NCBI GenBank assembly: GCA_965249725.1
Contig: CBDFMQ010000002.1
Coordinates: 2,528,001-2,592,000, forward strand
Source of the DNA: Longimicrobiales bacterium
GTDB taxonomy: Bacteria; Gemmatimonadota; Gemmatimonadetes; Longimicrobiales; Gaopeijiaceae
Length of the DNA: 64,000 bases
Reading direction: 5' to 3'
The first letter of the stretch is position 1. Each line of letters begins with the position of its first letter. A program made the position numbers. Shown one piece after another: positions 17,301 to 20,300 of this stretch.

Positions 17301-20300
17301 CAGCGTGCTCTTCTTCGGTGTGCCCCTGCTGCGCATGATGGGAGTGCGACGCGAGAACAAGGCACGCAAGGCCCGCAATGTGAGACGCCTGGTCCTGGGG
17401 CTGGTCTACCGAGAGGCTCTCGCCGGACGTGGAGCCGTGACGGTGGAAGCGGCCGCCGGCTACGTGCGGAACCGCCTGAAGGACCAGGCGGTCGATGATG
17501 TCGAAGTCGAGGCAGCCCTCCACTCCATCGCCGCCGAGTTCAATGCCGACGTCACCTCGGGAGCCGACGGGTCCTTGGTGTTCACGTTGCCTGCGATCCG
17601 GCGAGAGTTCGTGGCGAGTGAGATGGTACGTCAGGGCCTCGCACTGGAAAACCGCAAACTGGGCGACATCGTGTATTCGAGCGCCGACTCGTCCGTGGAG
17701 GCCTCCAAACGAGACCTGGACGAATTCGACCGGCAACTCGCCGGCGCGGAGATGGACCTGAGCGGTTATCTGCCGTCGCCAGACCGGGCGGGCTTCGAGG
17801 ACGACTACGAGATCGTAGCGTTCGATGAGGAGCTGCGGGGCAAAAGCATCAAGCGGGGCTAGACCCAACCTCGACCGACCCGCGGACCCCCGACGCTCGA
17901 CCCCGAAACCCCGAGGACGCTCGAGCCCGAAGCTCCGATTGCGCTCGACTCCGAAACCCCGATGTGGACGATTCAACGGACACTTCCAGGGCCTCGAGCG
18001 CCCGCTTGAACACGTCGGAGGGGATGTCGACCTCGCGCTTGTAACGGGCCGACCCGGTGAAATAGTCGGGCTCGATGCCTCGGGCCCGGTTCTCCTCAAT
18101 GAGCGCCTCGACAGGCTCGGGAGTCAGCGGTGGGGTCGGGGATGGCTGGTCGGGGATCATCCTCATCTTCGGATCGAGGAAGTAGAGCCGCTCCCCCCGA
18201 GGGAAGTGAGCCGTATACCCTTCCTCGTGCACCAACCGATGATGAAACTGGCACAGCAGCACCAGGTTCTCGAGCTTGGTCGCTCCACCGTCGGCCCAGT
18301 GCCTGATGTGATGAGCGTCGGTGAAGCGGAGGCCGCAACCCGGGAATCGGCATCCTCGGTCCCGGGACTCCAGCGCCCGCCTGAGCGCCGGCGGCATCGT
18401 GCGAGTCTTGCGGCCCACGTCAAGAATCGAACCAGCGGGTGACTCGATGAGCCGCACCACGCTGGCGTCGCACGAGAGCCTCCGGGACGTTTCCGCGGAA
18501 ACGCGTGTGCCGTCTTCGAGGTCGGAACGGCCGGGCTCCGTGTCGGATTGCAGCGTGGGCGCCTCGACGTGCAGGACCACTTGGTAGCGTTCGGCCCGGG
18601 TGCCGCTGATGGGGGCTGTGTGGTCGCGTCGATCTTCAGCACGCTCCTGCCCGAACCCGGCCGCCAGCGCTCTCTCCGCCACCAGCCCCACCGCATCTGC
18701 CCGCCGCTGCTTCGGTGTGACGTCCTTTGAGGAACCGGTCAAAGCGTCCTCGCCAGAAGCGCTCTCACGGAACAGCGCGTCACTCGCCGCATCCACAGCC
18801 TGCAGGAGCATCGCTCCCGCCTCCGGATCCAACCGGCCACGCACCACGTACATGCCCTCTTCGTCCGGGAACACTGAAAAGCAGCGCGAGCGATGACGCA
18901 TCCGCTCGAACTCGGCCTCGTCGTGCCGGCTCAGGCTACGCCACGCCCGCACCACCCGCTCCAACTGGGCCGCCGTGCACGAGTGGGCGAGCTCGAGCAG
19001 CTCCCCCTCACTCGCGGGAGTGGCCACGCGCGTGAGCGCCCTCACCTTGGCGAAGGACAGCTCCCCCTGGGCCATGGACGCACCGATCCGAGGAAGCTCC
19101 ACGAGGGCACGCGAGGCTCGCACCCTCTCTCGGGCGGCCCCCAGATCGATCCCGGTGCGGAAGGCGAGCCAGTGGGCGCACGACCTGTGGCCGCCGGGCT
19201 CCCACCCTCTGAGCCGGTCGAACTCAGCGATCAGGGTGAGAAGGCGGTGCTCAGCGGCATGGATGTGCGCGGCGAGTGTAGCGATCTCGTCCCCCAAATC
19301 CTGGAGGTCGTCGAGGTGGTTGTCGGAGCTGGTGGGAGCGTACGGGACATCTGGAACAGTGAGCGTGGCGGGACGCATCGGAAACCCCTGATCTGTAATG
19401 GCGGTAACGACTTACAGTGAAATATAAGGGGCATATTTCGGGCCTCTCAGAGGCCCCTGGAGGCGCGAGGAGGGGTGTCGAGGTCAAAGAAGTCGCAACG
19501 ACCGTGGTTGACGGGGCGGCCGGCACGGGGAGGCCGTAGACAAGCCGATTCAGACACACTCCCGGACCTAGCGGACTACGTCTTACGCAAAGCCGTCCAT
19601 AGCTGGATGGGACTACGCGCAGGCGGCGGACTACAGGTAGAGGATGGGTGTGGACTACGCATGGGGGACGGGCGCGGACTACGCGCCGGATGCGGAAAAC
19701 GTACGGAAAACGCGTGGCGGTTGGGACTAAGCAGTGGCAGGGGGGTGCTGGTAAGGGCGTCCGTCAGTGGGTCAGAGCGTATAACACGATGTTGATCCCC
19801 AGGGCGTATGACTGGGGCGAGAACTGGAAGAAGAACTGATCGTCCTCGCCCTCGCGTTCCCAACCATCCGCGATGTCCGTGTTGTGGGTCATGACCACGA
19901 TAAGCCGCCCCGCCTTGTCCCGGATGCCGCGAAGGTGTGCCTCCTCGCTGTCGCGACCCTGCTCTGAGGTCCCGGAACGCCCACTCCGACGCCAATACTG
20001 AATGGACGGGACTTGAGGCACCTCGTGGACATCGTAGAGGGCATTCAATAAGAGATGGCCGGCCGGGATGTCGACGATCGGAAACTCGGCGGGCGGGAGC
20101 GCCTTGCCGATCTCGCGCGCCCATGTCGCCCACGCCCGACTGCCCCAGAAGTCGTCTGCCCAGAGGAAGCCCCCCTGCTCCAGGTAGAGGCGCAAGCGCT
20201 CGGCCTCCTCGGGGTCGATGCCGTTGGTACCGACGTCGGACATGAAGACGAAGGGGCATGCGAACAACTCGTCGTCCATGATCTGGACGATGCGGTGATC

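Follow-up and report, generated by a model that had tools for sequence, protein, structure and literature searches.

A 13E12-family DUF222-HNH gene with a fixed-distance leader and an internal parS-like palindrome in a Longimicrobiales genome

Results

Three copies of a DUF222-HNH gene

The window analysed here is a 64,000-nucleotide stretch of the genome of a Longimicrobiales bacterium (G000). Its minus strand carries, at positions 17849..19378, a gene for a 509-residue protein in which the Pfam domains PF02720 (DUF222) and PF01844 (HNH) cover residues 31-340 and 348-383, respectively. Exactly three copies are present in G000, as an earlier note on this DNA had stated, the other two ending at C3:1739919 and C2:224634. 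Their proteins are 78.4-81.8% identical, against 78-82% in that note, with dN/dS values of 0.2-0.31. The element belongs to the known 13E12 repeat family, a name absent from the earlier note: PF02720 scores are 99.9, 86.1 and 82.7 bits as compared to a curated cut-off of 24.4, the HNH domain is C-terminal and the copies form a dispersed, multi-copy repeat. No transposase, integrase or RT is encoded, as had been claimed, since only DUF222 and HNH matches were obtained. The seven other-frame ORFs matched no Pfam family, and the main ORF had no match in NCBIfam or among the anti-phage defence models of PADLOC.

On one side of the element lies a DUF4159 gene (19764..20618, minus strand), which adjoins the next host gene in the congeners G001, G002 and G011. 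On the other side, a plus-strand gene (16270..17862) encodes a 530-residue protein with no Pfam family, and its stop overlaps the end of the element ORF by 14 nt. All three G000 copies are located in convergent gene pairs. A general preference for such pairs was discarded, as only 9 of 39 loci showed this arrangement in a crude ORF call.

A leader of fixed length behind a sharp left boundary

Pairwise alignments and a motif search placed the start of homology between copies at the motif GTCCCATCCAGCTATGGAC (19595..19613, minus strand). This start is abrupt, as previously described: the three leaders are 69-76% identical, whereas 200 nt farther upstream identity is only 42-45%. The 19-mer GTCCCATCCAGCTAT(G/T)GAC begins 235, 235 and 236 nt upstream of the ATG in the three copies, and these were the only matches at up to two mismatches in the 4.16 Mb searched. 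Among 86 pairwise alignments, 40 started 0 to -3 from the first G of the left motif. The palindrome GTCCCAT..ATGGAC proposed for this end does lie 235-236 nt before the ATG, but its spacer is six nucleotides instead of five and copy C reads ATTGAC. Nor is it an invariant mark, the GTCCCA arm being absent from 14 of 129 leaders and from the Acidobacteriota copies. The conserved mark is a TTGACA-like core, T(T/G)GACR..TTT (19589..19599, minus strand), invariant in gene-anchored loci and in Acidobacteriota. It resembles a sigma70 -35 hexamer, but lies 150 nt farther upstream than such a hexamer should. The -10 box, TATATT, is at 19421..19426 (minus strand), and the core precedes it by 172-175 nt.

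The constant spacing reported earlier was recovered. In the window, the 19-mer and TATATT are 168 nt apart, or 167 nt if the count begins where the TGGACG hexamer ends. Start to start, left motif and -10 box are separated by 186-190 nt at 86 sites, 63 of which show 187-188; this motif-plus-box pattern occurs in 47 of 151 family genomes, with 0 for the reversed control. At 102 of 120 gene-anchored loci with the core, the -10 box follows 171-176 nt downstream, and the Acidobacteriota copies keep the same distance. The gap between the -35-like and -10 hexamers, 167 nt (17 + 150), is constant across two phyla. Searched across the phylum, a loose core-plus-box pattern remained at chance level overall; five look-alike matches in two genomes (G099 and G083) were true leaders, four with the gene and one cut by a contig end. 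The leader is not a general host promoter type, as the three copies scored 56-72 with a two-part matrix, whereas the best other place in G000 reached about 1. As a hallmark of the element it fails for Gammaproteobacterial multi-copy relatives, which have only a short promoter and the gene in common. Upstream of the boundary, the flank (19614..19730, minus strand) contains four degenerate repeats of the element terminus (TAGTCC), a modest enrichment. The terminus is repeated upstream in 21 versus 5 of 125 leaders, an excess that is not significant when compared to the flanks of other elements (p 0.11).

The spacer between the two marks (19427..19588, minus strand) is of fixed length. Its sequence is not conserved, in agreement with the earlier description (median ungapped identity 38%), yet its G+C content is phased with a period of 10.0 bp. 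Such a constant 167-nt gap with phased but unconserved DNA in two phyla is odd in its own right. The leader is also, as already noted, not a conserved RNA structure: no stem rose above the parallel-diagonal null, and fold z values were -0.15 and -0.52 in 30 leaders. An Rfam search of nine loci gave no match. A guide or bridge RNA was therefore rejected, covariation, fold excess and Rfam match all being absent. Passages of PMC6379681 describe about 130-150 bp of phased G+C at the strong gyrase site of phage Mu and in the E. coli gyrase motif. In the leader, both arms of the gyrase matrix score together at one offset; 19 of 89 leaders exceeded the 95th percentile of random windows with the 130-bp matrix, the arms matching and the centre not. 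The leader differs in its period of 10.0 rather than 10.75 bp, its negative score for the matrix centre and its similar scores at several offsets, so that the spacer could not be established as a gyrase site.

Distribution and ends of the element

DUF222-HNH matches number 0-21 per genome. They are present in 41 of 61 family genomes and absent from 20, complete ones included. On the tree, copies group by genome (G000, G069, G061, G070, G056, G276 and G277). Many are broken, including 5′-truncated ones. Only the gene and its promoter are common to different loci, the flanking genes never. Overall, a promoter module plus one gene is found at many unrelated intergenic sites and is absent at some orthologous sites. 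The empty sites reported for two copies were confirmed: neither site A nor site B is occupied in G001 or G002, and site A is also empty in G011. In G001, site C is not entirely empty, since it contains a solo left end some 50 bp long; solo left ends also occur at L079, L131 and L143. Empty sites A and B share no target motif, and the left motif as insertion target was rejected because it is missing from both.

The right end is vague, as had been stated. Pairwise comparisons showed it to be ragged within a repeat-rich C-terminal tail (17849..17990, minus strand), homology stopping 130-170 nt before the stop codon. Neither terminal inverted repeats nor two defined ends were found at the element copies. 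Target duplication was likewise missing, as expected from the earlier note, both beside the 98.5% identical pair L384/L385 and beside the G000 copies. No circle or joint across the element appeared in four runs, examined as contigs, which reveal presence only. One pair, in G075, is 99-100% identical over 1.5 kb, yet 86-95% identical to congeners holding the same sites. It was rejected as a young insertion with an empty allele and ascribed to gene conversion between two old sites. Near-identical copies can thus come from whole-element gene conversion, and mobility is therefore old or slow. A true IS in the same genomes, unlike this family, has dozens of 99-100% copies; some DUF222-HNH copies adjoin IS elements. 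The family is rare on phages and plasmids: matches comprised two viral loci with HNH alone, nine records among 72,556 for plasmids and two among 50,697 for phages. Of the term "self-mobile" used earlier, the dispersed, patchy single gene with a sharp left boundary is observed, whereas movement itself we infer.

A parS-like palindrome within the gene

The strongest cis signal, absent from the earlier note, is a perfect 16-bp parS-like palindrome inside the ORF, CGTTTCCGCGGAAACG (18488..18503), coding for R-V-S-A-E-T. Val293 is encoded by GTT in 95% of 64 copies (background 8%) and Glu296 by GAA in 92% of 63 copies (background 21%). Two-sided compensated changes were found at pairs 1, 4, 5, 7 and 8, on separate branches, and some alter residues (VPAGT, VTAVT, VSYET). 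There are 109 extra sites, spread over 68 of 147 elements, at a density of 1.4-5.4 per 10 kb within elements as compared to 0.036 genome-wide. None has the flanks of the main site, showing that they are not duplications. Cross-tabulating two counts by hand, the palindrome occurs in 30 of 41 gene-bearing versus 1 of 20 gene-free genomes. As a blind test, G285, picked solely for its nine palindromes, proved to hold two genes of the clade. Judged from its rare GTT and GAA codons, the compensated changes, the extra copies and the co-occurrence of gene and site, the palindrome is under selection at the DNA level. The compensation could stem from self-correction or from a hairpin; central pairs are compensated too, as is the case in one host gene. 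Of 12 other DUF222 loci from actinobacteria, none showed the site pattern, L538 having a near variant, and in 41 Actinomycetota genomes the palindrome pattern did not follow PF02720 matches in general.

Predicted domains and SOS-box-like motifs

Residues 38-150 (18929..19267, minus strand) are predicted to fold like the DNA-binding (HTH) domain of ParB/Spo0J/KorB/Noc proteins. The top four fold matches were ParB, Spo0J, KorB and KorB (Z 8.4, 7.5, 7.1 and 6.8), the best being 6s6h (rmsd 2.4, 96 aligned residues), a moderate match for a helical domain. Foldseek E values were 0.16-0.7, and hhalign against the host ParB was not significant (E 0.2); R113 aligns with ParB R204 in a weak alignment. 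No Pfam match to ParBc, the N-terminal CTPase, was obtained, and the HTH-like domain starts no more than about 40 residues into the protein. The middle region (residues ~160-320) had no clear fold match, named Atlas cluster or solved homolog outside HNH. The zinc-binding HNH nuclease domain (residues 326-399; 18182..18403, minus strand) has intact catalytic residues, the H/N/H and Cys positions being 97-100% conserved in 141 DNA copies. Its closest solved relatives are the HNH domains of IscB and McrA. Pfam and fold searches of the protein found no HUH or catalytic Tyr domain.

An SOS-box-like motif, TTCGS-N6-TTCGS, directly follows the -10 box in 21 of 129 leaders, and similar boxes occur at nine Gammaproteobacterial loci. 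These motifs would correspond to the type of each host phylum, the box identities following in part from lexA/recA of G000.

Discussion

A palindrome within the element's own gene suggests a route for copying without a transposase. Our preferred reading, to which we assign a probability of about one half, is that of a selfish 13E12-family single gene whose protein would bind its own site and nick, leaving the copying to host recombination. The ParB-type domain would bind the palindrome GTYYC-N4-GRRAC as a dimer, and the tethered HNH domain would nick DNA within or beside the element. The nick would be repaired by host recombination, mostly from another copy, resulting in whole-element gene conversion. 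Rarely, the element may be copied into another break, giving new copies with imprecise ends. Through the host SOS box, expression would in many lineages be coupled to DNA damage, while RecA is active. The 187-nt leader may be wrapped or looped into a nucleoprotein module, fixing both the promoter and the left copying limit. Several observations count against this selfish-gene reading. A young insertion together with its empty allele did not turn up among the pairs and runs examined; the leaders of the three G000 copies, window included, have no SOS-like box; 17 of 147 elements lack a good main site and have no extra site either; and by-eye comparison revealed no HTH residues that vary together with the site. 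The moderate fold match, the non-significant profile match to host ParB, the compensation at central pairs and in one host gene, and the lack of the site pattern at the 12 other actinobacterial loci weigh on the same side.

Stand-alone palindromes number 3-9 per genome. Three congeners have retained such sites at orthologous places in the host genome, which also counts against the preferred reading and fits a host binder. The palindrome would then be bound by ParB or another nucleoid protein, the element mimicking parS and the DUF222 HTH reading the left-end motif. Variants lie one or two changes from parS, a host ParB was found in 5/5 genomes searched, and the arms are those of parS, TGTTTCAC-GTGAAACA, as given in passages of PMC7383237. 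We nevertheless hold this for unlikely, as none of 147 main sites is identical to parS, the complete, gene-free genome G007 has ParB but no palindrome at up to one mismatch, site-rich genomes have no additional ParB paralog above cut-off, and the palindrome accompanies the gene across phyla. The compensated pairs, fixed left end, ragged right end and solo left ends would also suit single-stranded hairpins and one-ended, rolling-circle-like copying in the style of IS91/ISCR or IS200/IS605, starting at the left end, stopping variably and with HNH replacing HUH. The upstream repeats of the terminus and the palindromes close to the stop codon in 30 places, as well as at the homology end of L041/L042, point the same way. 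However, central pairs, expected in the loop, are compensated as well, the left "hairpin" covaries at one pair only and has lost its 5′ arm in subfamilies, the upstream excess is not significant against other flanks, 5′-truncated copies occur and HUH or catalytic Tyr domains were not found. HNH enzymes, moreover, hydrolyse DNA and do not rejoin it. This copying mode appears improbable to us.

We give equally little weight to an immobile, host-useful DNA-damage nuclease or regulator, passively duplicated, whose "left end" is a promoter limit and whose copies undergo ordinary gene conversion. It would account for the phylum-matched SOS-box-like motifs, the old shared insertions, the far fewer near-identical copies than in true IS and the stand-alone palindromes at host promoters such as ruvB-queA; LexA is bound at six M. 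tuberculosis 13E12 genes according to PMC3381160. It fits poorly with the absence from 20 of 61 family genomes, the up to 21 matches elsewhere, the many broken copies, the never-shared flanking genes and a leader model that matches no G000 host promoter. Least probable by far is that the element is non-autonomous and depends on a transposase, of the host or of an IS, or on a site-specific recombinase acting in trans: the sharp left boundary and the IS elements next to some copies are what it has in its favour, but terminal inverted repeats, target duplication and a fixed right end are missing and the HNH site is under purifying selection.

Among known systems, REP13E12 of M. tuberculosis shares the Pfam family, the HNH domain and a dispersed, multi-copy state. 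Papers on the 13E12 repeats (PMC3381160, PMC10589994, PMC13061034 and PMC13157036) call them insertion elements and link them to LexA or RecA_NDp; PMC3381160 also places a phage attachment site within a 13E12 repeat of M. tuberculosis. They are gene conversion and inversion hotspots (PMC13061034 and PMC13157036). Unlike REP13E12, the copies described here occur in Gemmatimonadota, Acidobacteriota and Gammaproteobacteria and have a phased leader with a fixed length of 187 nt, as well as a parS-like palindrome inside the gene that is lacking in the 12 other actinobacterial loci. A literature search, most subscription papers lying outside it, returned no mechanism, ParB-like or binding domain, cis site or palindrome for 13E12. 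The predicted DNA-binding fold and the 16-bp palindrome with parS arms recall ParB/parS, Noc/NBS and KorB/OB (PMC7383237, in part); a CTPase domain and ParA are missing, however, the domain is fused to HNH and the in-gene site is never parS.

IscB/OMEGA and HEARO have the nearest HNH relatives and a long non-coding leader, but the present element has no RuvC, TnpA or structured leader RNA. RAYT/REP, IS91/ISCR and IS200/IS605 combine a nuclease gene with palindromes, stand-alone palindromes elsewhere and one fixed end. The element likewise pairs a nuclease gene with palindromes and one fixed end, although it has no HUH transposase, few stand-alone sites and no conserved subterminal hairpin. HNH homing leaves conversion tracts and no target duplication. 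It targets the cognate empty allele, whereas DUF222-HNH copies lie at unrelated loci and carry a putative recognition site, and the conversion seen here was between filled sites. For free-standing HNH homing endonucleases (T4 mobE, I-HmuI; PMC2790892), HNH cutting is followed by copying of the gene by host recombination.

The DUF222/13E12 family comprises 30,943 clusters at 50% identity (E up to 0.001). Although its repeats have been known for some 25 years, no mechanism has been assigned to it; in M. tuberculosis it is a marker of recombination hotspots. For DNA binding, the present work offers a candidate domain together with a candidate site and its natural variants; the nuclease is intact and the left end defined. 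We propose, tentatively, a mobile class free of transposase, integrase and RT, in which a ParB-derived domain joined to an HNH nickase would use a parS-like site embedded in the codons of its own gene. By wrapping, the 150 bp of phased DNA would join the -35-like core to the -10 box and set the left end, and the class would spread by steering host recombination at the time of the SOS response. Such a principle would also account for the 13E12 repeats and for the hotspots of conversion and inversion at these loci. If true, this would be a mobility route overlooked by IS finders, and the protein would be a naturally occurring nickase specific for a sequence of 14-16 bp.

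The element and its copies

The DUF222-HNH ORF lies at window positions 17849-19378 on the minus strand and encodes 509 residues, with DUF222 at 31-340 and HNH at 348-383. The source genome, G000, holds three copies (A in the window, B and C elsewhere), 78.4-81.8% identical to one another, in line with the 78-82% of the earlier note, with a dN/dS of 0.2-0.31 by rough count. Sites A and B carry no element in the congeners G001 and G002, and site A is also empty in G011, which bears out the claim of empty sites for two copies. The element is patchy: 41 family genomes bear the gene and 20 do not, copy numbers range from 0 to 21, and in the tree the copies cluster by genome. 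Named relatives lie in Gemmatimonadota, then in Acidobacteriota, Gammaproteobacteria and Actinomycetota. Four bases at 17999-18002 are missing in two sequencing runs, which would frameshift the last 50 ORF codons. Two further features were noted around L032:3424-6051 and neighbours and L035:5232-6068. Downstream of copy C come a PadR-like gene and a MacB/FtsX permease, both missing at the G001 site, and another repeat family of G000, of about 0.8 kb, occupies at least 18 places.

Homology between copies starts at GTCCCATCCAGCTAT(G/T)GAC, 235-236 nt 5′ of the ATG, a motif that G000 matches at its three copies only, allowing up to two mismatches. The three leaders are 69-76% identical and the adjoining 200 nt beyond only 42-45%; the abrupt start of a shared leader, earlier placed at 235-238 nt, was thus recovered. 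A degenerate form of the motif was found in 47 of 151 family genomes (reversed control, 0 matches). Of the metagenome hits retrieved through the motif, the gene followed in 33, was missing in 26 that had at least 700 nt, and 51 were too short; most of the 26 have no subsequent RGxTTT and look like chance matches, and a few are solo left ends. Forty of 86 pairwise alignments spanning the left end begin no more than 3 nt from the initial G; the remainder extend further, in part because sites are orthologous or upstream repeats are shared. The right end is as vague as had been stated, scattering from about 240 nt before the stop codon to 47 nt after it, with close pairs ending near the stop. Terminal inverted repeats and target duplications were sought at the element copies and none was found, as the earlier lack of a clear duplication had suggested.

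Site C in G001 is not empty but keeps a solo left end roughly 50 bp long (L079:5280; G001 C11:719271-719318). This fragment shares 94% identity with the full copy that G001 carries elsewhere, and it lies in the intergenic gap that contains copy C in G000, though its distance from the stop differs. In four loci (L125, L126, L176, L198), TGTGGATAA or near variants, which we take to resemble a DnaA box, stand directly upstream of the left motif. Imperfect short tandem duplications are frequent in intergenic gaps of G000, G002 and G011 (for instance window 17860-17990, upstream of lexA), in variable ORF ends and at empty sites.

Leader, spacing and damage-type boxes

The conserved leader mark is T(T/G)GACR..TTT, a -35-like hexamer seen in 120 of 161 gene-anchored loci; a -10 box follows 171-176 nt on in 102 of these, at 173-175 in 93. 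Because many loci were retrieved by motif, the presence of the mark is biased, whereas its spacing is unbiased. Five loci from Acidobacteriota that lack the GTCCCA arm still have a spacing of 172-174, and five matches to a loose core-plus-box pattern, in a tally that took in unpublished genomes (from the set G025, G222, G280, G297), were leaders of G099 and G083 with a spacing of 173. The gap between the two hexamers is 167, or 17 + 150. The fixed 167-nt distance reported before therefore stands as a spacing, but the palindrome does not stand as its mark.

The spacer has a median identity of 38%, as unconserved as claimed. It gave no covarying stem, fold excess or Rfam match, in agreement with the view that the leader is not a conserved RNA structure. 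Its mean profile has a G+C phase of 10.0 bp, a signal inflated by shared ancestry; the same phase is seen in 14/93 single leaders against 2/91 upstream controls. Compared with the gyrase matrix of E. coli (PMC6379681, section 23, table DS10), the spacer matched at the arms and not at the centre, at several offsets. This points to wrapped or bent DNA and does not name the binder. A leader-model scan of G000 matched no host promoter. Gammaproteobacterial copies are without the long leader, the common unit being a short promoter plus the gene. Each of the three G000 copies has a GTAA-N4-TTAC palindrome (window 19404-19415 in copy A) past its -10 box, and these account for three of the seven matches genome-wide.

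Induction by DNA damage is suggested by several boxes. Nine Gammaproteobacterial loci have CTG(T/G)-N8-ACAG, one actinobacterial locus GAAC-N4-GTTC and two G070 loci GAAC-N7-GAAC, all presumably LexA boxes. In G000, the direct repeat TTCG-N7-TTCG (period 11) occurs twice upstream of lexA (C3:1443141), once upstream of recA (C3:575065), and at C3:643578, 1354915, 1358473 and 1374203. It is a candidate SOS box of the host Gemmatimonadota lineage, a naming not found in the literature searched. It stands at the -10 box in 21/129 leaders (chance, 10 of 15,480 positions) and is missing there from all three G000 copies. Homologs in L015 (G032) and L515 (Rhodococcus erythropolis plasmid NZ_CP050126.1) have a TGTCRG-N10-TA promoter, presumably RecA-NDp/PafBC-like; L515 has, in addition, an SOS-box-like motif as well as CGTCCCCGCGGGGACG some 100 bp upstream. 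For M. tuberculosis, PMC3381160 describes six LexA peaks at 13E12 genes, termed insertion elements.

Predicted domains and the internal palindrome

AlphaFold2 models were confident (pLDDT 88.7 and 87.5). Modelled residues 38-150 matched parS-bound ParB (Z 8.4, rmsd 2.4, 96 aligned), followed by Spo0J (7.5) and KorB (7.1, 6.8), the best four of 48,161 chains. Foldseek returned ParB and Noc at E 0.16-0.7, and a profile comparison of DUF222 with host ParB stayed below significance. A ParB-type DNA-binding domain is thus likely, not certain, since such Z values can be common among helical domains. The HNH domain, nearest to IscB and McrA, keeps its His, Asn and Cys residues in 97-100% of 141 copies and, judged from this conservation, has an intact nuclease site. 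Of the ParB-like HTH plus HNH proposed before, the HNH part holds and the ParB-like part is likely. The middle region gave no clear fold match.

A 16-bp parS-like palindrome that the earlier note does not mention, CGTTTCCGCGGAAACG, lies inside the ORF at window 18488-18503 and codes for R-V-S-A-E-T. Codon use and base-pair changes both point to selection on it at the DNA level. GTT encodes its Val in 95% of 64 genes, against 8% elsewhere in those genes, and GAA its Glu in 92% of 63, against 21%. Among 147 elements, two-sided compensated changes at pairs 1, 4, 5, 7 and 8 number 18, 18, 7, 30 and 3, and one-sided changes 26, 18, 23, 23 and 19. The compensated changes, in non-independent rows, repeat on separate branches of a FastTree tree built without the palindrome residues. 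Sixty-eight of the 147 hold 109 extra sites, in the linker, near the stop or upstream, in no case sharing flanks with the main site; the main-site core recurs in 71/90 extra sites where shuffling gives 51, although relatedness among the elements inflates this figure. The main site has decayed in 29 elements, 12 of which have another site. The exact 14-mer occurs in 30/41 gene-bearing against 1/20 gene-free family genomes, an excess partly due to the genes' own sites, but gene-free genomes are also without stand-alone sites. G285, selected solely by its nine palindromes in a survey whose tallies also took in unpublished genomes, carries two genes of the same DUF222-HNH clade. A Rhodococcus plasmid homolog (33% identity) has a palindrome variant upstream; the site pattern was found in 0/12 other actinobacterial loci (one from an unpublished genome), which counts against generality. 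None of the main conclusions depends on the unpublished genomes.

Several palindromes stand outside elements. Three intergenic ones in G000 (C3:148065, 1903819, 2413572) have a common left context, GCCCCCGC, and orthologous places kept in G001 or G002; one G000 palindrome lies between ruvB- and queA-like genes and one within a tRNA cluster. A host coding sequence for D-G-V-S-A-E-T (G000 C3:2612787; L297:1673) has the palindrome in G002 and the two-sided variant GTCTCCGCGGAGAC in G000. Two canonical parS-like sites adjoin the single host parB (G000 C1:175391, 175416, 177317). In G011, the stand-alone site L438 is a remnant of an element's 3′ end.

Gene conversion and age of insertion

The two copies in G075 are 99-100% identical over 1.5 kb. 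Both sites are also occupied in the related genome G144, and G119 has one whole copy and one remnant. Because these copies are 80-97% identical to those of G075, the near-identity reflects whole-element gene conversion. A true IS in the three genomes has dozens of near-identical copies; a 1457-bp element (L434:3167+2999 region in G075) has dozens of copies, 99-100% identical, across G075, G119 and G144, one adjoining a DUF222 copy. G001 and G002 have an old insertion in common that G000 does not have. In four sequencing runs both junctions were confirmed in other samples and no empty allele was seen. New insertion must therefore be slow or date from long ago, whereas conversion is frequent. 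Of the earlier proposal, a dispersed, patchy single-gene element is supported; its self-mobility is putative. In M. tuberculosis, two papers describe frequent conversion at 13E12 loci (87 events; PMC13061034) and these loci as inversion breakpoints (PMC13157036).

Discussion

The observation is real, and we consider the following mechanism the most likely (probability about 0.5). The DUF222-HNH protein would bind its own parS-like site and the HNH domain would nick nearby; host recombination would then convert other copies and, rarely, copy the element into a new break. Such copying would leave a left end set by the promoter, which gives the leader a putative role, and a right end that is ragged, without any duplication. 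The anatomy, the patchy distribution, the DNA-level selection on the palindrome, the intact nuclease and the conversion are shown by the analysis, whereas binding, nicking, induction by damage, fresh insertion and what the leader does are inferred.

It is improbable, in our judgement, that a host protein binds the palindrome. Its arms equal the parS arms TGTTTCAC-GTGAAACA given in PMC7383237, and stand-alone sites are retained at orthologous host positions in three congeners; 0/147 main sites are identical to parS. We hold a single-strand, one-ended copying route to be equally doubtful. The terminus 8-mer recurs upstream in 21/125 leaders on the same strand against 5/125 on the opposite one (34 against 33 among 520 host gene ends), and an alignment-score test of these repeats against flanks of other elements gave no significance. 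A host-useful gene, passively duplicated, ranks no higher, and the patchiness described speaks against it. Movement in trans is very improbable. Models of transposases, recombinases, RTs and defence systems gave no match, and the statement that no transposase, integrase or RT is encoded was upheld.

The element belongs to the 13E12/DUF222 family, already known as a repeat; REP13E12 was reportedly first described by Gordon et al. in 1999. It is not a classical IS, having no transposase or recombinase, terminal inverted repeats or target duplication, nor OMEGA/HEARO, there being no structured RNA signal in the leader. Closest in working mode would be a free-standing homing nuclease, here with a predicted ParB-type aiming domain. 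The literature searched held no account of the mechanism, domain, palindrome or leader, and earlier notes on REP13E12 ends or duplications may exist. If self-binding and nick-driven copying proved true, the element might, tentatively, represent a new class of mobility.
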